Positions 39 to 47,681 of a DNA stretch of 49,480 nt are shown in pieces. Position 1 is the stretch's first letter. Each line of letters starts with the position of its first letter. The notes under the pieces were generated by a model that was not told the DNA's origin, did not search any database, and saw only the letters and a list, made by a program, of their open reading frames with translations. The position numbers were made by a program, and so were the translations under genes. Origin of the DNA: a virus; the IMG/VR virus record IMGVR_UViG_3300021387_000130, positions 1 through 49,480 of that record, one strand, 5' to 3'.

Positions 39-1415
39 TTATATTATATCATATCCTAACTTTTTGTAAACAGATTCTCTCTTTTTTGCCCAACCTTTAT
101 ACATGCCGAAATCGTCAATAAAATCTATTACTATCCCCCGCTCTTTTCCTTCTGCTTTGCGACCCACCCTGCCAGAAGCCTGTTGTATTCGTGTCGGATC
201 TTTTTCAGGAGTGGCGAATACAACATACTTAAGATTCGGACAGTCGAGTCCTTCAGCGGCAAGTTGATATGTACAAAACACAGCATCCAATTCACAATTA
301 TTCAGCTTTCCTAATGCATCCTTGCGTTCCTCTTTTGCCGCCTTGCTGTGCCCCATAGATGACAAGCATCTGCTCTTCTTGGAATATGCTCTGTCCAAAC
401 GATCCAGATATTCTACCCTGTTTGCGAGAACAAGGATTGGTGAGTGTAGCTCCTCTATCGTCTCAAGCACAACCTTGAAACGTTTTTCGTTATGCACCAG
501 ATCATCCACAAGCCCTGCATAGTTTATTGTTCCATCTCCCGATAATGCCATATCCATGTCCGGCATATAATTAGTGTAAACAAGCTTAACTCTTACTTCA
601 CACGTTGTCTGTGAAACTTCAGCACGGGATACCTCGTGAATTATGCCGCCTAACAATGCAAACATACTTTTTTCGAGCCCATCTGCTCTTTTCGGTGTAG
701 CTGTTATTCCAAACTTGTATCTGCAGGAAAGATTGCTCAATACCTTGTAAAACTGCATGACCTTTGTCGGAGAGCCGATTGCTTTATGACATTCATCAAC
801 AATAATCACATCCCATGCATTCTTGTATTGAGTTAAATCAAGCTTGCACATCGTCTGTATTGTGGCGAAAGTTATTCCTGATCCTATATTAACTTTACCC
901 CCTGTGATCGTTCCATATAGGCTTGCAGAACAGTTAAGCACCGATTTAGCTCTGCCCAAGCTTTGATTGAGTAAATCCTGCGTATGCGTCAGCCACAGCG
1001 TCTTTCTGCCTAAGACAGACACAATCTCCAGTGCTGTCTGGGTTTTCCCTGCTCCACATGGCATCACGATAACCCCATTTTTCTGTTTCAGTGCCGCTCT
1101 TACAGCTTCTTCCTGATATGAATACATTTCTATGCCGGAAAAATACCTGACACTTTCATTATCGGTAAAGAGGCTGTAAAATCTGCTTTCAGGAAACTGT
1201 TTTCGAAGTTCATCGACACATCCGAATGGAATAATCAGGTCATTGCCATCCTTCTCATACAAGTAAATATGTTCCGGGATATTTCCGCACCACAGTCCCA
1301 TTCTTTGTTTTTTGTAATATTCAGGATTATCAAGCACCAGATTACTTTTGCACCATTCATTCAACTCTTTGCTTGCCTGTCTTGCGTATATCTTTGCTCC
1401 AACTTCAAAGTGCAT
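39..1415 (-). CDS. Superfamily-2 DNA helicase (DEAD/DEAH-box, Rad25/SNF2-like)
   Basis: Contains Walker A MPCGAGKTQTA, a DECH box, TATP and motif VI QQASGRVGR. The start is set at MHFEV, behind GAAGGTGG; the ORF track extends to 1433. Confidence 0.85.
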   Translation of the reverse strand: MHFEVGAKIYARQASKELNEWCKSNLVLDNPEYYKKQRMGLWCGNIPEHIYLYEKDGNDLIIPFGCVDELRKQFPESRFYSLFTDNESVRYFSGIEMYSYQEEAVRAALKQKNGVIVMPCGAGKTQTALEIVSVLGRKTLWLTHTQDLLNQSLGRAKSVLNCSASLYGTITGGKVNIGSGITFATIQTMCKLDLTQYKNAWDVIIVDECHKAIGSPTKVMQFYKVLSNLSCRYKFGITATPKRADGLEKSMFALLGGIIHEVSRAEVSQTTCEVRVKLVYTNYMPDMDMALSGDGTINYAGLVDDLVHNEKRFKVVLETIEELHSPILVLANRVEYLDRLDRAYSKKSRCLSSMGHSKAAKEERKDALGKLNNCELDAVFCTYQLAAEGLDCPNLKYVVFATPEKDPTRIQQASGRVGRKAEGKERGIVIDFIDDFGMYKGWAKKRESVYKKLGYDII

Positions 1416-1755
1416 CCAGATCCACCTTCCCATCCCTTTTCAGTCTGCTGTATTCTACAACTTTTATCTTGCGTCTGTACTGAATAAAAATAAGTGGCTC
1501 ACCATTCCCGCAGGCTATCCATTTTTCAAAAGCCATAACCTGATTTTCCTCCAACCTTCCAAGAGGGAAAAACCTGCTTTTTTCGTCCTGTGTCTTGCAT
1601 TCTACAGCAATCGCAAAACCATCCTTAACTGCAATGATGTCAAACGGCTGTGCGCCTCTTGAGTCAGGTGAAAGAAAATGCACCCATGCGCCCAGTTCCG
1701 AAAGCTTTTTTACCACCTGTTTTTCGAATGCTGTTCCTAGTTTTTTATTGTTCAT
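1405..1755 (-). CDS. Holliday-junction resolvase-like PD-(D/E)xK nuclease (Hjc type)
   Basis: Shows the Hjc-like pattern GTAFEKQVVKKLSELG...FDIIAVKDG...AVECKT (D...ExK). It sits in the recombination module. Confidence 0.6.
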   Translation of the reverse strand: MNNKKLGTAFEKQVVKKLSELGAWVHFLSPDSRGAQPFDIIAVKDGFAIAVECKTQDEKSRFFPLGRLEENQVMAFEKWIACGNGEPLIFIQYRRKIKVVEYSRLKRDGKVDLDAL

Positions 1756-1772
1756 GATCGCTCCTTAAGTCA

Positions 1773-1804
1773 GAAAAAGCAGTCTGGCACTATGACCAGA
1801 CTGC
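1773..1804 (-). terminator. Rho-independent terminator (minus strand)
   Basis: A 9-bp stem GCAGUCUGG/CCAGACUGC with an 8-nt loop is followed by UUUUU on the minus strand. Confidence 0.55.
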
Positions 1805-1818
1805 CATGCGTCTTTGTC

Positions 1819-2289
1819 TTATTCAAAATCAGGCAGATCACCCATGTCGCTTTCGCTTAACTGCATAAAGCCTTTATCATCAACTGTTGCTCCGTTCGCT
1901 TCCTTCCAAGGCGGCAGATCATCCTGCTTGTTCGCCGGGATGAAATAATGCAACTTTGCTGTTTGATTTCCGTTGTACTCATCATGTCTGATCTGACAAG
2001 CGCCAACCTTACCTATCCAATTCTTCATGTTGAAATCACCTTCAGGAATATCCTTGAAGCTGTCAAAGAACTGTGTCAGCATTCTGTTGGTAATCTCCGG
2101 CCGATCATCAAGAAATGTAATATAGTGGTACAAAGTCTGTGACTGACCTGATACATCAAACTGCAGGGCAAGCATATCATTTCCACTGTGCTTGGACATC
2201 GCCTTTTCCGCACTCTTAATGCGGATACGATATCTACCCTCCGGGATAACATCAAACTTTCTTTCTTCTCTCTTAAATTCCCAAGCCAT
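1819..2289 (-). CDS. DUF669-family phage protein
   Basis: FDVIPEGRYRIRIKSAEKAMSKHSGNDMLALQFDVSG matches the DUF669 signature. It has the usual position next to a Sak4-like ATPase. Confidence 0.6.
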   Translation of the reverse strand: MAWEFKREERKFDVIPEGRYRIRIKSAEKAMSKHSGNDMLALQFDVSGQSQTLYHYITFLDDRPEITNRMLTQFFDSFKDIPEGDFNMKNWIGKVGACQIRHDEYNGNQTAKLHYFIPANKQDDLPPWKEANGATVDDKGFMQLSESDMGDLPDFE

Positions 2290-2291
2290 TG

Positions 2292-2441
2292 TTATTCTTC
2301 CTCCTTAATCTTTCGTGCTGTCACGTTGGTTTCCTCATCGCCGCATTCAAGGCAGATATTGCAAAAGTTCAGCGCATCCGTAATCTCGTTGAACACGAAT
2401 TTTGTAAATCCATTGACCTGTATCACTCTCACTTCCCACAT
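2292..2441 (-). CDS. Small Cys-containing protein (49 aa), below the ORF-track size cutoff
   Basis: The ATG overlaps the upstream TAA (TAATG), with AGGAGGG 9 nt upstream. Translation: MWEVRVIQVNGFTKFVFNEITDALNFCNICLECGDEETNVTARKIKEEE. Confidence 0.4.
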   Translation of the reverse strand: MWEVRVIQVNGFTKFVFNEITDALNFCNICLECGDEETNVTARKIKEEE

Positions 2442-3187
2442 TACTGTTCGCCCTCCTTAAATTTTACGAAGTCCTCAATCTTACAAGCCTTACGGCTATC
2501 AATCTGGTTCTTGGCATAAATATTTTGCGTAGCCTCAAGCAGGATGCCGTGCTGACCATCCTTGTTAACAAATATCTTTCCTACCACATCGCAGAGCCCG
2601 CAGATGTTGTCTACAATCTTCGCACTGCATTTAGGATAAAGCCTGCTGTACTGCGATCCGTCAGGTGATGTAAACTGCTCTACGGTCTCCCATGCTGTCC
2701 AGACTATATTCACTCCAAGAGCTTTCATCTGCCTCAGGCTGTTAACAAGTTTAAACTGCATATACTGGTAGTCAGCCATTGCAGGAACGCCCTTGTTTTT
2801 GCCCTTCGAACCAAGATCACTCAGGATGCATCTTTCCAGTTCAGAAATATTGTCAACCGCAATCGTCCTGATATTTGCCGCCTTAAGCTGTCCTGCCTGA
2901 GCCATTTCCGTGAGGTCATTCATGACTGATGTCCAAGCATCAAACGTATTGATGTTGTCCACCTGCTTAATAAACACCCTGCTCGTGTCTTTTACAACCT
3001 CTTTTTTGGCAAGAGTCTTCATAATTGTTCTATCTACATCGAGCACTAATGTATTGCCTTCGGATGCCTCTGCAATCAGTCCGATTGCAGTGCTCTTGCC
3101 AACCCCCGGTGGGCAGTAAAGCAATGCAGTATAACAACTGTCTGCCTGCAATGCATCATCAAATTTACGGATTTCCATAATCACCAT
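2441..3187 (-). CDS. AAA_24 / Sak4-like RecA-type ATPase
   Basis: Walker A LLYCPPGVGKST is followed by TLVLDVDRT. The start is uncertain: 3187 or 3178, against 3253 in the track. Confidence 0.7.
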   Translation of the reverse strand: MVIMEIRKFDDALQADSCYTALLYCPPGVGKSTAIGLIAEASEGNTLVLDVDRTIMKTLAKKEVVKDTSRVFIKQVDNINTFDAWTSVMNDLTEMAQAGQLKAANIRTIAVDNISELERCILSDLGSKGKNKGVPAMADYQYMQFKLVNSLRQMKALGVNIVWTAWETVEQFTSPDGSQYSRLYPKCSAKIVDNICGLCDVVGKIFVNKDGQHGILLEATQNIYAKNQIDSRKACKIEDFVKFKEGEQ

Positions 3188-3941
3188 CCCTTCTTGCAAA
3201 TTCCACATATTCCTGATTTGGGTCATAGTGTAAGCATATCGAAGCATACTCACATATCCTGCCCCAGTGTCTACAGTATGCAGTGTTCCGGTAGAAATGA
3301 TCTGTAGAGTTCATTTCCTGAGCCATGTGTTCAAGAGCTTCGGAAAACTCCTGCACCTCCGCATCCGTGCGAGTAATAAGCATGACTCTGATTTTCGCTT
3401 CCGTATCTTCGTCATACCATTCCACCATTCTATTAAAGAACTCCTCATCCGACTCGTTTTTCTTCTGCCTGATTGTGGGCTTCCTGCAGACAGTGTAATA
3501 AATTTCTCTTACCCCGGTCATCAGCATATACGCTAATATCTGTTCATCCCACTGCAGATTGTATTCATATTCCTCAGTAATGTCAGAGCTTGTTGTCTTG
3601 TGTTCCACAAGCCTCCCATCCTCTGCTATTCCATCAAGCCTGCCCACCAGTTCGTCCCCAGTGCAAAGCTTGTAAGATTTCCATTCTTCACAAGCTCTGA
3701 CTCTGAATTTTGGATAGACATATTTTTGATATGCCGTTGCCATGGCAAGCTCTTTGGAATAGTTTCCATCATAAGCTGAAAGATTGCCATCTTTGTACAG
3801 TGTTTCAAGGATATCATGATACCGCAATCCTGTCTGAAGCGCATCCGCACTCTGTACTGGCTCCAAGCCCTCCACATACTTCAGCTCGTAAGCTCTGCGG
3901 CATGCCTTAAACAGCTTAATCCGGCTTATGCTGAATCTCAT
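3165..3941 (-). CDS. PD-(D/E)xK exonuclease, Cas4/RecB-like with a 4-Cys cluster
   Basis: Contains RLDGIAEDGRLVEHKTT (D...EhK). An N-terminal Cys (FKACRRAY) plus C-terminal CRHWGRICEYASIC resemble Cas4 Fe-S ligands. Confidence 0.7.
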   Translation of the reverse strand: MRFSISRIKLFKACRRAYELKYVEGLEPVQSADALQTGLRYHDILETLYKDGNLSAYDGNYSKELAMATAYQKYVYPKFRVRACEEWKSYKLCTGDELVGRLDGIAEDGRLVEHKTTSSDITEEYEYNLQWDEQILAYMLMTGVREIYYTVCRKPTIRQKKNESDEEFFNRMVEWYDEDTEAKIRVMLITRTDAEVQEFSEALEHMAQEMNSTDHFYRNTAYCRHWGRICEYASICLHYDPNQEYVEFARRDGDYGNP

Positions 3942-36660: not shown

Positions 36661-37026
36661 TCAGCTCTCCTTTCTTTCCATCTGTTTAACCTGATCCATC
36701 GTAAAGAAGAATGCTACCTTCTTGTAAAAGCCCTTTGCTTTCATTTCAGCATCTTCTCCGGTTCCTTCTTTATCTGCATCAGCCTCTTCCTTCTTCTTAT
36801 CTTTTTTAGGCATCCAGATCTGGAACCTTGCCACCGCATGTTCGCCTTTTCTGACGATATATCCTTCACGCTTCCATGCGTCGAAGGTTTTGATTTCTTC
36901 CGGCATCATCATCTCACGTTCACCGTCCTCATCATTGAACGTGATTGATGTTCCTTCAATGCCTTTGATCACTCCCTGCTCCATCAGGAAGACTCTGTTT
37001 CTAAAAATAATTTCTGCGTTTGTCAT
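36661..37026 (-). CDS. ArdC-N-terminal-like (DUF1738-like) ssDNA-binding-domain protein
   Basis: KTFDAWKREGYIVRKGEHAVARFQIW and FYKKVAFFFTMDQV resemble the ArdC N-domain motifs. The start at MTNAEII follows the CCCAAGGAGGTCAAG leader. Confidence 0.45.
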   Translation of the reverse strand: MTNAEIIFRNRVFLMEQGVIKGIEGTSITFNDEDGEREMMMPEEIKTFDAWKREGYIVRKGEHAVARFQIWMPKKDKKKEEADADKEGTGEDAEMKAKGFYKKVAFFFTMDQVKQMERKES

Positions 37027-37065
37027 GATCTTGACCTCCTTGGGTTCCTTATTTGTTCTGCCATT

Positions 37066-37094
37066 ACTATAGCTCATTTGATTATATATGTCAA
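37066..37094 (-). promoter_or_regulatory. Sigma-A-type promoter (family member)
   Basis: Minus strand reads TTTTTATTGACA-17 nt-TATAGT. Confidence 0.65.
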
Positions 37095-38150: not shown

Positions 38151-38476
38151 GCGTTCAGTGTCTCCTCTTTTTTCCAGACAAACTGTATTCCTGTTTTATC
38201 CTTAAGCTCTTTTTGCAAAGCAGGAAAGTCAACATTCGGGTCAGCCAATGACATCAGCCTGTTGCAAAACTGCGTGACAATCCTGTTAACCCTTTTTGGC
38301 ATATAACCGTAAAGGTCATATACCGCAAGCCCCATGCAGGTAGTATAGATTTCCACCGTTCTATCATCAACCCTGTCCTGCCGATCTTCTATTGCTTTGC
38401 TGTATTTCTGTTCAAACGACCTTTGTTTCTTTATCTCTCGTTCAATGCGCCTTCGCTCCTGCCTGCTTTTCCCCAT
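38147..38476 (-). CDS. Hypothetical protein with a basic N-terminus
   Basis: The ATG overlaps the upstream TGA. No domain was recognised. Confidence 0.4.
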   Translation of the reverse strand: MGKSRQERRRIEREIKKQRSFEQKYSKAIEDRQDRVDDRTVEIYTTCMGLAVYDLYGYMPKRVNRIVTQFCNRLMSLADPNVDFPALQKELKDKTGIQFVWKKEETLNA

Positions 38477-38763
38477 CACTCATCCCTCGCATTCATGATT
38501 ATCGTTGCTACACAAAATCCTGCAGATGCTCCAAGAAATAATCCCAACAGAAACCACATATCTGCATTACTCCTCCTCTTAAGCTTTATTTTCGGCGGTA
38601 TCATTCCATAAATCTCAGCAACAGAGTCAAGCACACCACCTATCCAATCATTCTCTCTCCCGGTACTTGTGACATACTCGTACAACTCGTGCCCGCTTTC
38701 ACATCCTGCCATCTCAAGCAATCTGTTCATTGCATCTTTTTTGCTTATCAGAGTGTCTTTCAT
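38476..38763 (-). CDS. Membrane-anchored protein with a degenerate DLIS-type N-terminus
   Basis: The start MKDTLISKKDAMNRL is coupled to the upstream stop by ATGA. The C-terminal TM is MWFLLGLFLGASAGFCVATIIM. Confidence 0.45.
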   Translation of the reverse strand: MKDTLISKKDAMNRLLEMAGCESGHELYEYVTSTGRENDWIGGVLDSVAEIYGMIPPKIKLKRRSNADMWFLLGLFLGASAGFCVATIIMNARDE

Positions 38764-39113
38764 CCTTGTTTGTCCTCCATGTAAGCTCCACATTCCGGGC
38801 AAAATCTCGACTGTGTATTCTGTCGTTTGCCGCACCTACTGCACATCAGCGGAAACATGGAACCCTCTACGCTTATAATCCAATTTCCTGACTCGCAATC
38901 AGATTTGGGAAACCTGCCGCCGCCCAAAGAGGTATCCTTTATAACATGCTTATTGATCAATTTATGCATATGATCATATGATGTCTTTGCGGCTGTTTCG
39001 CCTTCGTGATAGCAGACAAAGGCCCCGTCCTCTCGCAAGCTTGTAATTCTGCCTAACTCGTATTTTTCACCGTTACGATAGATTATATATTCACCCTCGC
39101 AAAACCCATTCAT
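38760..39113 (-). CDS. Zinc-ribbon protein
   Basis: C-terminal CSRCGKRQNTQSRFCPECG. Confidence 0.45.
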   Translation of the reverse strand: MNGFCEGEYIIYRNGEKYELGRITSLREDGAFVCYHEGETAAKTSYDHMHKLINKHVIKDTSLGGGRFPKSDCESGNWIISVEGSMFPLMCSRCGKRQNTQSRFCPECGAYMEDKQG

Positions 39114-39417
39114 CCTGTCCACCTCGCATATCTGCTCCGCAGTGCGGGCAGAAGCTCCATTTTTTCTGAGAAGCTTTGCCGCCTATAAATTGAAATGGCG
39201 CGCCATAGCCGCACATATTACATGAGTACGAAAAGTCAGCATCGCCATGAACGTAAGTATTCCACTTCCCCTTCTTCCTCTTCACAAACTCAACCTCTCT
39301 GCCATGCTTTGTGTGGAACATAATTCTGTCTGTGTGGTCAAAATCAACATCCATTATGCCATCCCACTGCTCTTCTGTAATCGGGCTATTAAGTGTTAAA
39401 GTCAGTTCGTCCTGCAT
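39091..39417 (-). CDS. Zinc-ribbon protein
   Basis: CNMCGYG...FCPHCGADM. The start at MQDELTL follows GAGAGGTGA. Confidence 0.45.
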   Translation of the reverse strand: MQDELTLTLNSPITEEQWDGIMDVDFDHTDRIMFHTKHGREVEFVKRKKGKWNTYVHGDADFSYSCNMCGYGAPFQFIGGKASQKKWSFCPHCGADMRGGQDEWVLRG

Positions 39418-39691
39418 CCCGTTCACCTCTCCTGTCTCTTTCTGCAATCAACAGCTCTCGCCACCTGATCCAACCCATCATATCAATCTGCGGATCACCA
39501 CAAAGCGGTGCAGTCGCTAGAAAATCACAATCATCAATAAGGACAGTTAAGCCCTTATCTGATATTTCCGGCAGATGAGGTATTACGATGCTACGTATAA
39601 GGCTAGGCATGTATGACTGCCTGCCTTGGCAGTATCGTATTGCACAGATAGCAAGTATGCTGAAATCTTCCTGAGCAAGATTTTTAATCAT
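39389..39691 (-). CDS. Conserved phage protein of unknown function
   Basis: The AICAIRYCQGRQSYMPS motif is common in phage early regions. The start is coupled by ATGA. Confidence 0.4.
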   Translation of the reverse strand: MIKNLAQEDFSILAICAIRYCQGRQSYMPSLIRSIVIPHLPEISDKGLTVLIDDCDFLATAPLCGDPQIDMMGWIRWRELLIAERDRRGERDAGRTDFNT

Positions 39692-39861
39692 TTCTGCGCT
39701 TCTTTCTGCACGTCCACAGCATAAGTTTCTTGTTTCGTGTATCCCATCCACTGTGACGTGCAACTCTCAATCCAATCTGAATGCTGTGTTTTAAACTTTT
39801 CTGACAGCGTATATTCATCTGGAAGGTGGAAAGAGACTGTTGTCTTGGTTGTGATCATCAT
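39688..39861 (-). CDS. Hypothetical small protein (57 aa)
   Basis: The start at MMITTK follows GGAAGGAG. Confidence 0.4.
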   Translation of the reverse strand: MMITTKTTVSFHLPDEYTLSEKFKTQHSDWIESCTSQWMGYTKQETYAVDVQKEAQK

Positions 39862-40283
39862 GGTTGCACTCCTTCCTTGTATGGTTCCGGAAGTTGCATC
39901 CATGCTGTAATCTTTAATGGGTCTAATGCCGCATCAAAAATACAATCATACCATGTGCCCCGACCATAGTTAACCGGAATAATTCTCGTTTCTTCTCCAT
40001 CAACATATGTAACAAGAATATCAGTATTTTCTTCTGGCGACCTCTCACTGCACGGAATCCACCGTTGCTGTGTCTCTGCTTTACCACGCTCATAAGCCGC
40101 TTTCCACAGCTTGTCAGAGTATTCGCTCATGTCTAGCTGTGCGGATGGCAGGTTTTTTATGATGTCTATTGCATCCCACTTCCCGTCTACATATCCATCG
40201 TGGTATAAATCAGTGTAGTCATTGTCCTGATCCTGAGACAAGGACTCAATGGCTTTTTTCCTGCTGATTAAATCACTCATCAT
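39858..40283 (-). CDS. DLIS...LPSAQ-module protein with a DUF551-like C-terminal domain
   Basis: MMSDLISRKKAIESL...NLPSAQLD, then RWIPCSERSPEENTDILV...ITAWMQLPEPYK (DUF551-like). Confidence 0.55.
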   Translation of the reverse strand: MMSDLISRKKAIESLSQDQDNDYTDLYHDGYVDGKWDAIDIIKNLPSAQLDMSEYSDKLWKAAYERGKAETQQRWIPCSERSPEENTDILVTYVDGEETRIIPVNYGRGTWYDCIFDAALDPLKITAWMQLPEPYKEGVQP

Positions 40284-40554
40284 CTTCGCTCCAATCAATA
40301 TGTTGCCCACATATCATGCAATAGCATTGCCCCGTTGTTACGTCCGCATTACACTGCGGACAATGCGGGAATACCGCAAATCTGTTTTTTACATACCTAT
40401 CTTCCGCAACCCACTTTGGAGGTTTTGCCTCCTGCTGTGCGGATGGCAACTGCATCAACCACATCTCAATCCACTTAATATCAAGTTGTGCATCTTTTGG
40501 AATCATGGTGCGAATATCTTCAATCGCCGCCTGTCTGCTGATTAAATCATTCAT
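40273..40554 (-). CDS. DLISRQAAI...LPSAQ-module protein with a C-terminal zinc ribbon
   Basis: MNDLISRQAAIEDI...QLPSAQQE, then CPQCNADV...CYCMICG. Confidence 0.55.
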   Translation of the reverse strand: MNDLISRQAAIEDIRTMIPKDAQLDIKWIEMWLMQLPSAQQEAKPPKWVAEDRYVKNRFAVFPHCPQCNADVTTGQCYCMICGQHIDWSEDDE

Positions 40555-40559
40555 CCTGT

Positions 40560-41267
40560 TTACCCCCATTGTTCAGCCATAGCCTTTGCTATGCCGGAGA
40601 AAGTTTTGCTCCTAGCTTTTGCACGTTCAGCTTGACCGCCTTTGATGTTTCTCATTCCTTCGCACCAACCAATCTTTTTCCCCTTACCTTTCTCACCTTG
40701 CAAAATGTACATTGGCGGTGGAGGCGGTAAGAAGCTACTTCTTTCAAGCTGTGGAAGTCCTTTGAGCCATAGACACGTTCTCTTTTCGTAGTAATTTTCA
40801 GCATCATCCTCACTTTCTGCGAAAAAGTAAGGGTGAATAATCTGGTCTGGCTTTCTGTATGAAGAGTTCATAAAGCCGACCGGATTTTCTACTGCGATAC
40901 GGTCACAGTCAGCTAGGGCAAATCGCATGAAGAAAACAGCGGCTCTTGCTCTTTCTTCCCACCTGGCTATGACCTTCTCTGCCGTACAACACTTCAAAGA
41001 GTATTGCCTTGTGGCTACGTTACTTAAATAGGTGCAAGGCGGATGTGCAATTATTAAATCCCATCTGTCTGTCTGTCTGTCTGTCTTGCCATTCTGCAAT
41101 GTAAACTCACAATGTCCGTTTAACAATGGCAATACATCTCCCAATATATGCCACTCAGGATGTCCACCCGAGCATTCTTGAATATCACAGCTGTACGCTT
41201 CGTGTCCACGCTCTCTGAATGCCGTGCAGACCCTTTGCGATTCTTCGCAAGCAATTAAAACTCTCAT
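40560..41267 (-). CDS. Orphan DNA (cytosine-5) methyltransferase-like protein
   Basis: MRVLIACEESQRVCTAFRERGHEAYSCD...WDLIIAHPPCTYLS...IAVENP resembles the short phage-type cytosine methyltransferase family (PC catalytic motif, ENP). Confidence 0.55.
   Translation of the reverse strand: MRVLIACEESQRVCTAFRERGHEAYSCDIQECSGGHPEWHILGDVLPLLNGHCEFTLQNGKTDRQTDRWDLIIAHPPCTYLSNVATRQYSLKCCTAEKVIARWEERARAAVFFMRFALADCDRIAVENPVGFMNSSYRKPDQIIHPYFFAESEDDAENYYEKRTCLWLKGLPQLERSSFLPPPPPMYILQGEKGKGKKIGWCEGMRNIKGGQAERAKARSKTFSGIAKAMAEQWG
41064..41086 (-). repeat. Tetranucleotide microsatellite (AGAC)5.75 on the coding strand, inside the methyltransferase-like gene
   Basis: The plus strand reads tctgtctgtctgtctgtctgtct. 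It encodes KTDRQTDR upstream of the HPPC motif. Confidence 0.95.
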
Positions 41268-41338
41268 TTTGCCACATCCTTTGTATTTTCAAGCGCATCA
41301 ATCGCCGCCTGTCTGTAAATCAGATCGTTTTTTTGCAT
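41264..41338 (-). pseudogene. Truncated 24-aa copy of the DLI-RQAAI module abutting the methyltransferase start
   Basis: Translation is MQKNDLIYRQAAIDALENTKDVAK. Its TGA overlaps the methyltransferase ATG. Confidence 0.45.
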
Positions 41339-41625
41339 ATCACAAACCCCTGCCTCTCCATTAACTCTAAAGCTACACCATGCCATGCCATAAAATTGTA
41401 TAGTGTATTCTCCGACATTATTTTTGCAAAATCTTCTGCGGTTACTGGCTCATACTGCGGCTGTGCGGATGGCAACGCATTTATTACTTCCAATGCTTTA
41501 TTGCTATTAATTATTTTTATTTCCCTTGTATCTTCTGAAAGATACTCTCCAAATTCGAACCAATACGAAAAGCTAATCCCTTTCAGCTTATCAATTGCCG
41601 CCTGCCTGTCAATCAAGTCTTTCAT
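41320..41625 (-). CDS. DLIDRQAAI...LPSAQP-module protein
   Basis: MKDLIDRQAAIDKL...NALPSAQPQ, with an unrelated C-terminal part. Confidence 0.55.
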   Translation of the reverse strand: MKDLIDRQAAIDKLKGISFSYWFEFGEYLSEDTREIKIINSNKALEVINALPSAQPQYEPVTAEDFAKIMSENTLYNFMAWHGVALELMERQGFVICKKTI

Positions 41626-41869
41626 CAGCTCTCCTCTCTGCCCAATGTGTATTTAATTTGTCCATGATGCGGGAATACTCACCATCTGTTAACACATTGT
41701 CAATCCACATCTTCAACATTGCATTGGCGCAATCTGTATAACCAATTTCTTGCGGTTCCGGCTGTGCGGAGGGTAAAGCATGAATGTTTGAAGCAACTGG
41801 ATACACGCCTGACTTCCATCCTTTATCTAGCAGTTTAATAACATCATCTTCATATATTGCTCGTCTCAT
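41609..41869 (-). CDS. LPSAQP-module protein (variant N-terminus)
   Basis: ..NIHALPSAQPEPQE.., followed by a variable C-terminus. Confidence 0.5.
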   Translation of the reverse strand: MRRAIYEDDVIKLLDKGWKSGVYPVASNIHALPSAQPEPQEIGYTDCANAMLKMWIDNVLTDGEYSRIMDKLNTHWAERRADERLD

Positions 41870-42249
41870 CCCCTAGTATCTCCCTTCCATGGTTCTGGCA
41901 GAGGCATCCATGCAACTGCTTCTGTACCTATCTCATACCCACTATCCAGATAACTTCCATCGTCCGTATAAAATTCGTCATACTGAACACTTTCATGCCC
42001 ACGGACGCTAACGCTTACTAATATCCGCTGTCCGTCATCTGGCAGTTTGCAATCGAGAATGCCGTCCCACTCGGGATGCTCTTCTTTTTCTTCTTCCGTC
42101 AGCGGTCTTGTTATAAACCGGATCCACCGCTGTTCGTGTTGTACAGATGGCAAGGCTTCAATCACATGAAATGCTTGGTCTGTCTCTGCTGTACCATTGA
42201 TGCTATTCAATGCCTCTAGTGCCGCTTGTCTGCTAATCAAGTCATCCAT
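41866..42249 (-). CDS. DLISRQAAL...LPSVQ-module protein with a DUF551-like C-terminal domain
   Basis: MDDLISRQAALEAL...EALPSVQHE, then RWIRFITRPLTEEE...AVAWMPLPEPWK. Confidence 0.55.
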   Translation of the reverse strand: MDDLISRQAALEALNSINGTAETDQAFHVIEALPSVQHEQRWIRFITRPLTEEEKEEHPEWDGILDCKLPDDGQRILVSVSVRGHESVQYDEFYTDDGSYLDSGYEIGTEAVAWMPLPEPWKGDTRG

Positions 42250-42538
42250 TGTCTTTCCTTTCTGCATAGTTGCAATAGCCATCCTCAAATACGTCTATCC
42301 CTGTTTCATGCCACAAGAAACATCTTCCCTTATCTGCATACCAATGTTCGCAGTATTTGCAATCCTTGCACCTTATGATTTCTGGCTATGCGGATGGCTG
42401 ATTCCTCACCGCTTCCTCGCACAGATGCATACCAGTCATAACGATTCCTGCTCTGTGTGTATCATCCATCATCTGCATGCCCTGTCGTATCTTTTCGATA
42501 TGTTTCAGTACCGCCTGTCTGCTGATTAAATCAGCCAT
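42242..42538 (-). pseudogene. DLISRQAV...PSA(TAG)PE-module gene interrupted by an in-frame amber codon at 42386-42388
   Basis: MADLISRQAVLKHI...NQPSA-TAG-PEIIRCKDCKYCEHW...CNYAERKDNG. The TAG replaces the CAG (Gln) of the LPSAQPE motif conserved in the paralogues. Confidence 0.55.
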
Positions 42539-44971: not shown

Positions 44972-45373
44972 TCAAAATCTTTCATTCCAATATCTTACAG
45001 CTGTTTCTCTGGAGGGAAAGTCAGGCGTAATACAATATGAATTATAACAACTTCCCATGCAAAGCACCTTCCACTGCTTGCTGTGTCCTATAGTGCTTAT
45101 CTCGTATATTACAGCATTGCTCCCACAAAAAGGACACTTCTTAAGCCTGTCCAGTTCCTTTTTGACAGTTATATCCTCATCAATCTTGCTTTTCCGTGAG
45201 TTGGCATATCCAAAAGCAAGTATCCACAGGCAACACAAGATTGTCGCAAGTAATGCCGGGATGAAAAATGCATCAATCAAGCATCCTGATACTACCGCAA
45301 GAAAAACTGCGGCATAAGTTATTGCGATTAACACTTTGTCATGAGTCGTTTTTGTGTTCCATTTTGCCATCAT
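44972..45373 (-). CDS. Membrane-anchored Lar-family (restriction alleviation-like) zinc-ribbon protein
   Basis: Two N-terminal TM helices are followed by LKKCPFCGSNAV...CMGSCYNSYC...ETAVRYWNERF, a Lar-family pattern. The start at MMAKW follows CAGGAGGGG. Confidence 0.5.
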   Translation of the reverse strand: MMAKWNTKTTHDKVLIAITYAAVFLAVVSGCLIDAFFIPALLATILCCLWILAFGYANSRKSKIDEDITVKKELDRLKKCPFCGSNAVIYEISTIGHSKQWKVLCMGSCYNSYCITPDFPSRETAVRYWNERF

Positions 45374-45395
45374 TTCTTTCCCCTCCTGCCATAAA

Positions 45396-47681
45396 TCAAT
45401 CAATAAAGTCACTGAACTTATACTGTTTTGGCTCATTATGGGCAATAATTCGTATGTTTTTGTAGAAAATCCCAGAACTATTTCTGCCTTTTTCCGGTAA
45501 TTTCTTGCTGATTTCCGAGAAAAACTTCTTGGAGCTCATCTCATACTCGTTGTTTTCTTTCGCCCATCTAATATATGTCCTAAACAATTCTGTTGCAGGA
45601 ACTCTTTCGTCACAGTCATAATCAATCTCGATGCATTGCTCCAAGAACCCCGCAAGCAAATCCATTTCCTGCTTATATTCCTTAACTGCATCTGTGACGC
45701 ACTGCGGCTCTTCTATGCCGTATTTTCTCCATTTTATGCATCCCTCAACTGCCCACTTAAGTATCTGTGGGAATTCCTTTTTGAGTTTCTGTTTAAGATT
45801 TTTATCCACCTTTTCCTTCGGAATATTAACCTCAAACGGAATAAGCTTAATTCGCCTCCATATACCCAAATCAGTTCCTCTGATTACTGGTTTGTGGTTT
45901 GTGGCAATCCAGATTTTAAACTCGGGTGTGTACTCAAACTCATCACCATAGAGAAACCTACAAGTGACTTTTGAGCCACCTGTTAACTGTTTCAATAATC
46001 CCTCATTCAGTCTTACACCTTCTGTCGGTTCTTCACTGGTCACAAACCTTGCACCCTTCAGTCTGGCAACATCAGAATTTGCGCTGTCACTTCCCCACTT
46101 TTTCATCATGATCGTTTCCGGCTGAGTGTTTGCAGAATACCCTCCAAGTAAATCAGCCATTGTATCCAGAAAAGTTGATTTACCGTTGTTGCCTATACCA
46201 TAAAGAAAATAAGCGCACTGCTCAGCGGTACTGCCTGTCAGGGAATAGCCCACACAGCGCTGAATGTATTCCTGCAGTTTTGCATCGCCATTCGTCACAT
46301 CCTGCAGAAATGAAAGCCATAGCTCAGGTTGTTTTCCCGAAGTATCATAATCAGCATTGCACATCTTAGTCATCAGAAAATTGCTGTCGTGTGGGATTAA
46401 CTCACCGTTTCGCAGATTGACTATGCCGTTCTTGCAGTTTATATAATCCACATAAGAGTCAAGCTCATCCTGCATGATTGGTATTCCCGGAAGATGCTGA
46501 CACTCTTTGATCATCGCTTCCTTACCTTTGGAGCTCGCTGTCTTAATCGACCATTTTAAAAGGTCTACTTGAGTTTTTTCATCCTCTTCCATGATCGCTT
46601 CTTTTTTGATGTCATCACATATCATATCAGCAAGCTTTTTGACTTCGCCGGAGTTGTCAGCTTCCCAAACTTTACCATCCCAGAAAAACCATTTCTTGCG
46701 ATTGTAGGAATATCGAATGATCGTTCCGAACCTGTCCTGCAGTCTGTGAGCGTTTCCGGTATCGGTCATGTCATAGCGCTTCTTCTGTTCAACTCCTACC
46801 TTCCCATCACCGAAAAGAGCGAACGCCAATTCCTTATCATCGTCATAACGTTTCGGCTCGTATACATCAACACAATTAATGCAAGCTTTGCTTATGGTTA
46901 TCGCTCCATAAGTTGTTTCTCCTCTTTTCTGATCCCATTTCGGACGCATCAATCCGCTCGTTCGAAATATCCTGTCCATCTGCGCTTCATTGCGCTGTGT
47001 CCAAAAGGCAAGCTGATTACATAAAGCGAGATCGGCCTCAGACTGCGAAGAATATACGCCCTGCCAGTTTCCCTGATACAACATATTAAAAAGATACCCA
47101 CTTTTACAGGTTCTGGCTTTATCAATCACCTCCTGATCGTCCATATTGACAACTTCTACCCGCTGTCTGTTAACAACCTTCTGGCTATCTGAACTCAGAT
47201 ACTTTTCATGCAGTGGTTTAATACGTTCAGTGCATTCTTCAATAGTAAGATAGTTAGGATTGTACACATTGCCTGTGCAAATAAAGTACCTGCCGGAGCT
47301 GTACATCTCAACGTTTCCTCTGCGTCTTGCTCCCTTTGGAAGCTCTCCCCTGCAGATAATGTGGATGCCGTTGCCGCTCTTGGAATACTCTGCATAGCTC
47401 TGGAGTGTATCCACAAATTCATCGCAGAAATCAAGATCATCGGAGCAATGATCAAGATCAACTCCAAAGTATCCATTGGCAAACATGAAACCCACACCAT
47501 CAAAGTGATATTTATCGCAAGCCTCCACAGCCTGTTCAAAGCTTGCCCAAGTGCTTGAGTCATTTGACTTTGCACTTCGCCCGGTATATGGGTTTTTGGG
47601 TATTTTATCCGCTCCGCTCCAACATACCCACTGAGGAACATCTTGTAATTCCTTAGGGATATTTTCAATTCTTGTGACCAT
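45396..47681 (-). CDS. Bifunctional primase-polymerase / D5-type SF3 helicase
   Basis: The N-terminal prim-pol domain has GVGFMFANGYFGVDLDHC. The C-terminal P4/D5 helicase has Walker A YGIGNNGKST. The start is at MVTRIEN. Confidence 0.85.
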   Translation of the reverse strand: MVTRIENIPKELQDVPQWVCWSGADKIPKNPYTGRSAKSNDSSTWASFEQAVEACDKYHFDGVGFMFANGYFGVDLDHCSDDLDFCDEFVDTLQSYAEYSKSGNGIHIICRGELPKGARRRGNVEMYSSGRYFICTGNVYNPNYLTIEECTERIKPLHEKYLSSDSQKVVNRQRVEVVNMDDQEVIDKARTCKSGYLFNMLYQGNWQGVYSSQSEADLALCNQLAFWTQRNEAQMDRIFRTSGLMRPKWDQKRGETTYGAITISKACINCVDVYEPKRYDDDKELAFALFGDGKVGVEQKKRYDMTDTGNAHRLQDRFGTIIRYSYNRKKWFFWDGKVWEADNSGEVKKLADMICDDIKKEAIMEEDEKTQVDLLKWSIKTASSKGKEAMIKECQHLPGIPIMQDELDSYVDYINCKNGIVNLRNGELIPHDSNFLMTKMCNADYDTSGKQPELWLSFLQDVTNGDAKLQEYIQRCVGYSLTGSTAEQCAYFLYGIGNNGKSTFLDTMADLLGGYSANTQPETIMMKKWGSDSANSDVARLKGARFVTSEEPTEGVRLNEGLLKQLTGGSKVTCRFLYGDEFEYTPEFKIWIATNHKPVIRGTDLGIWRRIKLIPFEVNIPKEKVDKNLKQKLKKEFPQILKWAVEGCIKWRKYGIEEPQCVTDAVKEYKQEMDLLAGFLEQCIEIDYDCDERVPATELFRTYIRWAKENNEYEMSSKKFFSEISKKLPEKGRNSSGIFYKNIRIIAHNEPKQYKFSDFID

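Follow-up and report, generated by a model that had tools for sequence, protein, structure and literature searches.

Probable in-frame cassette shuffling at two short DNA blocks in a tandem array of small early genes of a phage

The 49,480-nt virus record IMGVR_UViG_3300021387_000130 (the window, analysed over its full length) is complete, with direct terminal repeats, and carries on its minus strand a tandem array of small genes that open with one motif, DLISRQAAI, and run through a second, LPSAQPE, into tails of different kinds. We consider it probable that these are mosaic early accessory genes whose parts are shuffled in frame, as cassettes, at two short homology blocks, an N block running from the start codon and a C block encoding LPSAQPE. 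An earlier note on this DNA, made from the letters of the window, had suggested that the conserved DNA provides homology tracts for cassette shuffling. The suggestion is strongly supported by synonymous sites that are frozen within the blocks, by heads and tails that assort independently, and by a replacement in a related phage that is bounded by the blocks.

The array and its genes

The array proved to be real, and comprises five full copies of the DLISRQAAI...LPSAQPE module (the head), one 24-codon stub and one copy of the C half between 39858 and 42538 on the minus strand. A degenerate DNA pattern for D-L-I-x-R-x-x-A occurred at six sites, all on the minus strand (40253-42532), against a chance expectation of 0.10, and none of 100 shuffled sequences reached six. 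A hidden Markov model (HMM) of the head, trained on 60 heads from other phages with the window excluded, was run on all 1,400 six-frame open reading frames (ORFs) of the window. Five full heads were found (starts at 41625, 42249, 40280/40283, 40554 and 42538; E values from 5e-15 to 5e-8), and all seven matches in the window lay within the array, with no other ORF matched.

The earlier note had named a compositional artefact, without significance in an HMM search, as a finding that would undo its reading, and E values down to 5e-15 from a window-free model argue strongly otherwise. That the genes are an artefact of this kind, or simple local tandem duplicates that have diverged, seems to us extremely improbable. 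The genes are indeed adjacent and co-oriented, but the middles of the heads in the window are unrelated to one another, and the closest kin of each head and each tail are found in other phages, joined to other partners.

The members of the array, in the order of the coding strand, are listed below.

42386..42538, minus: gene A, head ORF MADLISRQAV...NQPSA, 50 aa, ending in TAG (ORF list; head HMM E 5e-8)
42242..42385, minus: gene A continued in frame, four-Cys tail PEIIRCKDCKYCEHW...CNYAERKDNG (from the sequence)
41866..42249, minus: gene B, head and DUF551 tail, 127 aa (head HMM E 6e-12; 98% identical in the related contig L066)
41609..41869, minus: gene C, diverged head lacking an N block, C block ALPSAQPE intact, tail ...YTDCANAMLKMW... 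(HMM)
41320..41625, minus: gene D, head and tail of unknown type, 101 aa (head HMM E 5e-15)
41264..41338, minus: stub E, 24 codons (MQKNDLIYRQAAIDALENTKDVAK), N block running into the methyltransferase leader (head HMM E 1e-7)
40560..41267, minus: DNA methyltransferase, a passenger cassette within the array (phrog_757, E 1.2e-55)
40273..40554, minus: gene F, head and small CxxC...CxxC tail, 93 aa (HMM)
39858..40283, minus: gene G, head, C block, helix (DMSEYSDKLWKAAYERGKAE) and DUF551 domain, 141 aa (HMM, Pfam)
39091..39447, minus: small gene with an RKKGKW zinc-ribbon tail on a different, head-less N-terminus (tblastn, Pfam)
38476..38763, minus: possible decayed head and C-terminal membrane anchor, 95 aa (weak pairwise likeness)

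Shine-Dalgarno-like sequences lie upstream of the starts. The two tails that had been called DUF551-like are members of that family (PF04448, cut-off 22 bits), with 37.4 bits for gene G (E 4.7e-9) and 23.2 bits for gene B, and the membership holds for these two tails only, not for the head. Gene C had been described as keeping just the ALPSAQPE part, in agreement with an HMM match confined to its C half (E 1e-4). Its tail is 67-76% identical to tails in five other loci (L052, L045, L022, L046 and L038), and canonical heads carry it in L045 and L022. The copy at 41338, noted as truncated, is a 24-residue stub that holds the N part only, and its TGA overlaps the ATG of the methyltransferase. For gene F a zinc ribbon had been proposed; the CxxC...CxxC pattern is present, but the zinc-ribbon match itself is weak (E 0.03-0.06). 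The N block of this gene is the nearest to consensus, with 2 mismatches in 32 positions.

The degenerate copy that had been placed at 38763 is doubtful, as the head HMM does not find the ORF, which shows a weak pairwise likeness to the L040 head (27% over 62 aa; hhalign probability 14%). The ATG of this ORF overlaps the upstream stop codon (ATGA). Two more small genes of the array, 39091-39447 and 38760-39122, are head-less. Residues 56-113 of the former match tails in many loci by tblastn, with weak zinc-ribbon matches in Pfam. Since this RKKGKW tail stands on a different N-terminal domain, tails appear to combine with unrelated fronts as well.

Both motifs are conserved as DNA

The N block covers ~32-38 nt from the ATG and the C block ~20 nt, and both lie in frame and on the coding strand without exception. 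In the window they are found at the following positions.

42501-42532 (gene A), 42212-42243, 41588-41619, 41295-41326, 40517-40548 and 40243-40274, minus: N blocks, consensus GATTTAATCAGCAGACAGGCGGCGATTGATGC
40131-40151 (gene G), 42380-42400 (with TAG), 42133-42153, 41756-41776, 41455-41475 and 40429-40449, minus: C blocks, consensus TTGCCATCCGCACAGCCAGAA

The earlier note had remarked that the motif is conserved at the nucleotide level too. This conservation is real and goes far beyond what could be seen in the window, as judged from codon choice and third-position information. Codons of the conserved residues in ~80 copies (~75 for the C block) from 50 contigs were compared with the rest of the same genes, which served as background.

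N block, Ser AGC: 93% (background 27%)
N block, first Ala GCG: 95% (background 33%)
N block, second Ala GCG: 88% (background 33%)
N block, Ile ATT: 92% (background 42%)
C block, Ser TCC: 88% (background 12%)
C block, Ala GCA: 96% (background 44%)
C block, Gln CAG: 97% (background 65%)
C block, Pro CCA: 80% (background 37%)

Third codon bases hold 0.6-1.8 bits of information inside ATG..GATTTAATCAGCAGACAGGCGGCGATTGATGC and TTGCCATCCGCACAGCCAGAA (0.6-1.3 bits for the N block), compared to ~0.05 bits everywhere else. At residues with four- or six-fold degenerate codons the value is ~1.1-1.8 bits in the blocks, while four-fold sites in other conserved motifs of the same proteins (FCPNCGA and WMPLPEP) reach 0.1-0.6 bits. 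The hydrophobic neighbours of the blocks are conserved at the protein level only (1.7-1.9 bits at the second base, ~0.05 at the third). Synonymous sites are thus frozen inside the blocks and not at the hydrophobic residues next to them, indicating that the motifs are as much blocks of DNA as they are protein motifs. As the C block played no part in the search for loci, the search could not have caused its conservation. Moreover, where a protein has a second, internal connector, this is written in the same nucleotides.

Between random members of the family, the median exact shared run is 12 nt for the N block and 11 nt for the C block, compared to 3 nt in control stretches, and runs of at least 14 nt are shared by 43% of N pairs and 27% of C pairs. 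The copies in the window differ from consensus at 2-9 positions (N) and 3-5 positions (C). Neither RNA pairing between N and C blocks nor an internal hairpin was found above shuffled controls (-12.9 versus -12.6 +/- 3.1 kcal/mol).

These properties bear on the idea, which we regard as improbable, that the blocks serve not general homologous recombination but a dedicated system, for instance a site-specific recombinase, a homing-type nuclease or a template-switching polymerase. Sequences of ~20-32 nt that are extremely conserved across thousands of diverged genes, a strict orientation, and several homing endonucleases encoded by the phage would all suit such a system. However, the N and C blocks have no common core, neither hairpin nor duplex exceeds chance, and the mismatches seen in the window are loose for a specific site. 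In addition, no integrase or site-specific recombinase was seen among the window proteins scanned, which did not include every ORF.

Heads and tails assort independently

That a shared N-terminal module is joined to unrelated C-termini, as had been claimed for the window, holds across the family, and heads and tails assort independently. Where two genes share a head middle, their tails come from different clusters in 20 cases and from the same cluster in 7; single-linkage clustering over-merged Cys-rich and zinc-ribbon tails, so that the count of different tails is a lower bound. For gene D, 19 relatives match by the head only, with a mean identity of 79%, and nine of these alignments stop at residue 57, the end of LPSAQP. 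A further 15 match by the tail only (80% identity), and the 71 full-length relatives average 55%.

The breakpoints are also visible in the DNA. Gene pairs from different contigs, or from within L028, are 95-99% identical from the ATG through ...CAGCCAGAA, with random identity on both sides. When the ends of high-scoring segment pairs (88% identical, at least 100 nt) were located, 58% of them fell in block zones, against a share of these zones of 3% in the sequence and 24% in the array spans.

Comparison of the locus with that of a related phage, on a contig (L066) retrieved through a protein 99% identical to gene D, yielded a difference whose ends coincide exactly with an N block and a C block. 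The two sequences are 97.9% identical over 42240-41291, a stretch that takes in genes B, C and D together with the beginning of the stub. Identity stops at the final base of the stub E N block (...GATGCGCTT) and restarts at the first bases of the gene G C block (TGCCATC...), from where it runs for 76 nt. The segment in between was delimited by blastn and junction alignments.

40152..41290, minus: replaced segment with the methyltransferase leader, the methyltransferase, gene F and the head of gene G

Here the window has 1,139 nt and L066 has 132 nt of head, and the L066 counterpart of the stub is an intact 128-aa gene with a head, a DMSEYSDKLW... helix and a zinc ribbon. Judged from the compared sequences, then, exchange has fallen at the two blocks and in frame. 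Further downstream of its array, L066 carries a 765-aa gene and a 141-aa gene (L066:1725-4022) with no counterpart in the window, suggesting that the two phages are mosaic beyond the array.

Homologues of the methyltransferase were found inside the arrays of L049, L020, L052 and L047. In L052 and L020, where the homologues are ~50% identical, the gene is preceded by an N-block stub and leader as in the window. This recurrence suggests that the methyltransferase travels as a cassette with the N block as its left arm. L049 has two adjacent methyltransferase homologues in one array (L049:959-2295), the first of which seems interrupted, its match breaking off after residue 178 and an 18-aa piece of the C-terminus lying further on.

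A stop codon in the C block of gene A

Gene A had been presented as a Cys-rich CKDCKYC gene starting at 42538. A head followed in frame by a Cys-rich part is indeed present, but the two do not form a single ORF under the bacterial code, as a TAG (42386-42388) replaces the Q codon of PSAQPE in the C block, which reads CAGCCATCCGCATAGCCAGAA as opposed to the consensus ...GCACAGCC... With translation table 11 the four-Cys tail (42242-42385) is not translated as part of gene A, which would otherwise be an intact gene of 98 codons. Its full-length homologues are 73-81% identical, 97-98 aa long and uninterrupted, with Q, E or H at the position of the TAG.

Phage-wide reading of TAG as Q was considered and rejected, as it enlarged the ORF set from 45.6 to only 49.9 kb, below both other stop reassignments tried on the same strand. 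ORFs ending in TAG gained nothing coherent when read through, and no tRNA gene is present in the phage. The lack of a tRNA gene and of a general read-through signal makes the TAG look like a nonsense change, which would most simply be a recent one in an otherwise intact gene.

At least 20 other loci contain relatives of the four-Cys CKDCK tail. In its common form (CKDCKYW...C...FCSYAERR), the four cysteines align with the cluster ligands of high-potential iron-sulfur proteins in PDB (2hip and 1pih), with a weak E of 0.04, and single-sequence Pfam scans gave no support for this likeness. The tail may be a metal or iron-sulfur domain.

A large family with a predicted hairpin head

A scan of viral contigs identified 51 related loci, which together with the window contain 157 HMM hits, typically 2-7 tandem copies per 10 kb and all on the coding strand. 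When 1.84 billion representative proteins were searched with a profile, 13,763 matched at E<=1e-3 and 2,474 at E<=1e-10, and the module is therefore a real and very large family. The top matches have two to five heads in a row and end in a zinc ribbon or a four-Cys domain, and among 118 members surveyed the recognisable tails are zinc ribbons (~14) and DUF551 (13). The motif LPSAQPE does follow the shared N-terminal motif, as had been reported for the window, but it is not confined to that place, being a general connector that is also found between internal domains.

Nearly all proteins of the family are named 'hypothetical protein' in their sources. No model in Pfam, NCBIfam or PHROGs covers the head, even in proteins with three to five heads, where the tails alone match, and the motifs were not found in the literature searched. 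A tblastn search of the GenBank phage collection with a three-head protein gave no match. The only full-length match of gene G in that collection, gp51 of Ruminococcus phage phiRgPS_6, was rejected as a relative of the head, since the head HMM finds no head in it. Proteins with 2-5 heads (for example P0001, P0004 and P0067) have low-complexity joints such as THEERTETHAC and TQTNADSTQTN. Some family proteins open with a variant head, MRLIDADAL...APTI or APTV, suggesting that the family extends beyond the DLISRQAAI form.

AlphaFold prediction for the module, which the earlier note had proposed, gave a two-helix hairpin from 65 aligned heads (H7-24 and H31-50, pLDDT 80.8). In the model of gene G this hairpin is followed by a low-confidence stretch, a helix and a beta-rich DUF551 domain (pLDDT 80-90). 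The pTM of 0.44 is expected from such a beads-on-string layout. Residues 48-51, within LPSAQ, have a pLDDT below 50 and the domains are predicted independently, so that the junction of head and tail may be a flexible linker, which would fit chimeras that still fold. Searches with these models were made against known folds. The head matched only generic helical hairpins in PDB, with E above 1, and gene G matched nothing there. The best matches of gene G in BFVD were all named DUF551, none of them below E 0.001 (best 1.3e-3). A profile search of PDB sequences with the head gave chance-level matches only.

In a second explanation, for which the earlier note had already suggested a shared docking partner, conservation acts mainly on the protein, with the head serving as a docking or oligomerisation adaptor that takes different small domains to one common partner, be it a host or phage protein or the other paralogues, and recombination being a side effect. 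We give this explanation some weight, though well short of an even chance. It agrees with the prediction of a defined hairpin, at whose base both conserved motifs would adjoin with the hypervariable part forming the tip, and with hydrophobic positions beside the blocks that are conserved only as protein. It also agrees with the acidic nature of the heads (-8.6 net charge per 100 aa) and with the presence of 2-5 heads per protein, as in multivalent binders. However, selection on the protein leaves unexplained the near-invariant synonymous codons that are limited to the two motifs, and neither a structural relative of the head in the fold search nor a partner has been identified. An adaptor function could, moreover, coexist with shuffling.

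Shuffling at the blocks: proposed mechanism

In-frame shuffling at the two blocks, which we prefer, would involve genes built from a helical-hairpin head of ~45-65 aa, the flexible connector LPSAQPE and an interchangeable small tail, with DUF551, zinc ribbons, the four-Cys CKDCK domain and others on offer. The blocks would serve as short homology tracts. Exchange from N block to C block would swap heads, and exchange from a C block to the next N block would swap tails. Whole genes and passengers such as the methyltransferase could move as well, and unequal exchange would string several heads into one protein. The reaction may be an annealing-type homologous recombination, mediated by a Sak4-like protein, an exonuclease and a single-stranded DNA-binding protein (SSB) or by host RecA, during co-infection or with prophages. 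Runs of the lengths shared here are better suited to single-strand annealing proteins than to RecA. The phage encodes a compact set of recombination genes beside a helicase (1405..3941, minus), identified by matches to PHROGs.

1405-1755, minus: Holliday-junction resolvase
1819-2289, minus: SSB
2441-3253, minus: Sak4-like annealase
3165-3941, minus: exonuclease of PD-(D/E)XK type

From the presence of these genes, it is probably the annealase, exonuclease and SSB that drive the exchanges. The synonymous conservation would reflect either selection for exchangeability or the mere footprint of constant exchange.

Several points weigh against shuffling at the blocks. All the support for exchange is comparative, and the enzymes named for it, the roles given to the proteins and the expression of the array genes are presumptive. 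The median shared runs (12 and 11 nt) lie at the low end for homologous recombination, and the freezing of synonymous sites might in principle stem from a different role of the blocks as DNA or RNA. The fold searches of PDB and BFVD yielded no functional lead.

Genomic surroundings and possible role

The minus strand alone holds ~45.6 kb of long open frames, and all genes examined are read from it. The array sits in the early region, amid genes for replication and nucleotide metabolism. On the coding strand, the array is preceded by genes for a D5-type primase-helicase, a Lar-domain protein, an AAA ATPase and a DUF7192 protein, and followed downstream by those for a dCTP deaminase, a dUTPase and an ArdC-N-like protein. 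The ArdC-N-like protein (36661-37077) and a protein ending in a Lar (restriction alleviation) domain (44972-45445) flank the array region, and both are compatible with an anti-restriction theme of the early operon.

Relatives of the head were found in prophage-like regions of Lachnospiraceae (Bilifractor porci, and metagenome-assembled genomes from goat and other guts). These relatives suggest that the host of the phage is probably a clostridial bacterium of the gut or rumen. A megablast of the array region against the GenBank phage collection gave no match, and no syntenic relatives were found through the neighbouring DUF7192 gene.

The early position of the array, the methyltransferase and the Lar-like and ArdC-N-like neighbours, the small metal-binding tails and the rapid shuffling together fit a role in host takeover or anti-defence, and we infer that the proteins act early in infection in one of these ways. 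The head may provide a common handle, with the variable tip and the tail giving specificity. A more far-reaching proposal, which we consider unlikely as a whole, is that the blocks are more than leftovers of recombination and are kept as standard in-frame connectors, so that N block, variable hairpin, C block and tail form a plug-and-play grammar. With this grammar, the phages of Lachnospiraceae and their relatives would be continually assembling new two-part proteins for host takeover or anti-defence, the hypervariable tip of the hairpin recognising a target on which the tail then acts, and a particular annealase or nuclease might favour exchange at the connectors.

If shuffling at the blocks is correct, a family of at least 13,763 protein clusters follows a simple construction rule, in which two fixed DNA connectors exchange domains in frame, and annotators can divide its proteins into head and tail. 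The rule would also explain the stubs and odd small ORFs of such phages, here the methyltransferase leader. It would offer a natural, laboratory-testable example of domain shuffling at connectors within coding sequence, and would define a large pool of uncharacterised early phage proteins that possibly act on the host.

Comparison with known systems

The array is a real feature that follows an ordinary principle, phage mosaicism at conserved junctions, in an unusually regular form that, as far as we found, has not been described. It differs from integrons and shufflons in that the blocks are direct, on one strand and without a hairpin, and no recombinase occurs among the window proteins that were scanned, a set short of every ORF. 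Conserved motifs also mark swappable parts in polymorphic toxins, with VENN in CdiA and PxxxxDPxGL in Rhs, and in the tail-fibre adhesins of T-even phages. Such motifs are short, in frame and placed before a variable C-terminal domain, for whose replacement they supply homology. Unlike these proteins, which are large secreted toxins accompanied by immunity genes or else structural fibres, those of the array would be small cytoplasmic early proteins, with no immunity genes and with two types of junction.

The internal proteins of T-even phages are diverse small proteins that have just a conserved capsid targeting sequence in common and are linked to phage-host conflict; the sequence is a short leader at the N-terminus and is removed by cleavage after packaging (PMC3012670). 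Their layout, in which diverse small proteins of a variable locus begin with a conserved N-terminal part (PMC3012670), is the same as that seen here, and the motif at the end of the head could, speculatively, be a cleavage site. We nevertheless think it very improbable that the head is a leader of this kind. The genes lie among early replication and nucleotide-metabolism genes, and the head lacks signal-peptide character and, with 45-65 aa and a hypervariable middle, is unlike a short leader. Unlike the targeting sequence, the module is a predicted folded hairpin that is not known to be tied to the capsid, and heads with their LPSAQPE connectors recur internally and in tandem within single proteins, which argues against a pure leader. 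The targeting sequence may thus be taken as a looser analogy.

The Ea22/EaA-type early accessory proteins of lambdoid and P22-like phages combine a shared N-terminal part with portable C-terminal domains, including DUF551 (PF13935; PMC10834534). The array resembles them in having a shared front and unrelated portable tails, DUF551 among them. However, no match to PF13935 (Ead_Ea22) was obtained in any gene of the window or in the 118 relatives. Homology of the head to that of EaA was rejected, as the head HMM scored -0.4 bits on the one EaA-like sequence used, from phage ZX5. The array also differs in belonging to phages of Lachnospiraceae and in that its head is a single short, repeatable hairpin (as predicted) with both ends frozen at the DNA level.

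In T4-type phages, PeSL cassettes contain a short conserved element that is repeated through small non-essential early genes (Arbiol et al., 2010; PMC2839356). Insertions, deletions and replacements between close relatives end in the repeated element, with recombination between repeats (PMC2839356). Similarly, the differences between the window and L066 are bounded by a repeated element at both junctions, and ends of segment pairs are enriched at the blocks. The PeSL element is an intergenic promoter and terminator hairpin at which whole genes are swapped, whereas the blocks of the array are coding, in frame and without a hairpin, and alternate as two kinds that would swap protein domains as well as genes. 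Finally, phage proteins assembled from shuffled fragments have been surveyed in general (Smug et al., 2023; PMC10684548). Fragment shuffling is common to the proteins of that survey and to the array, with the difference that the survey is a general one.

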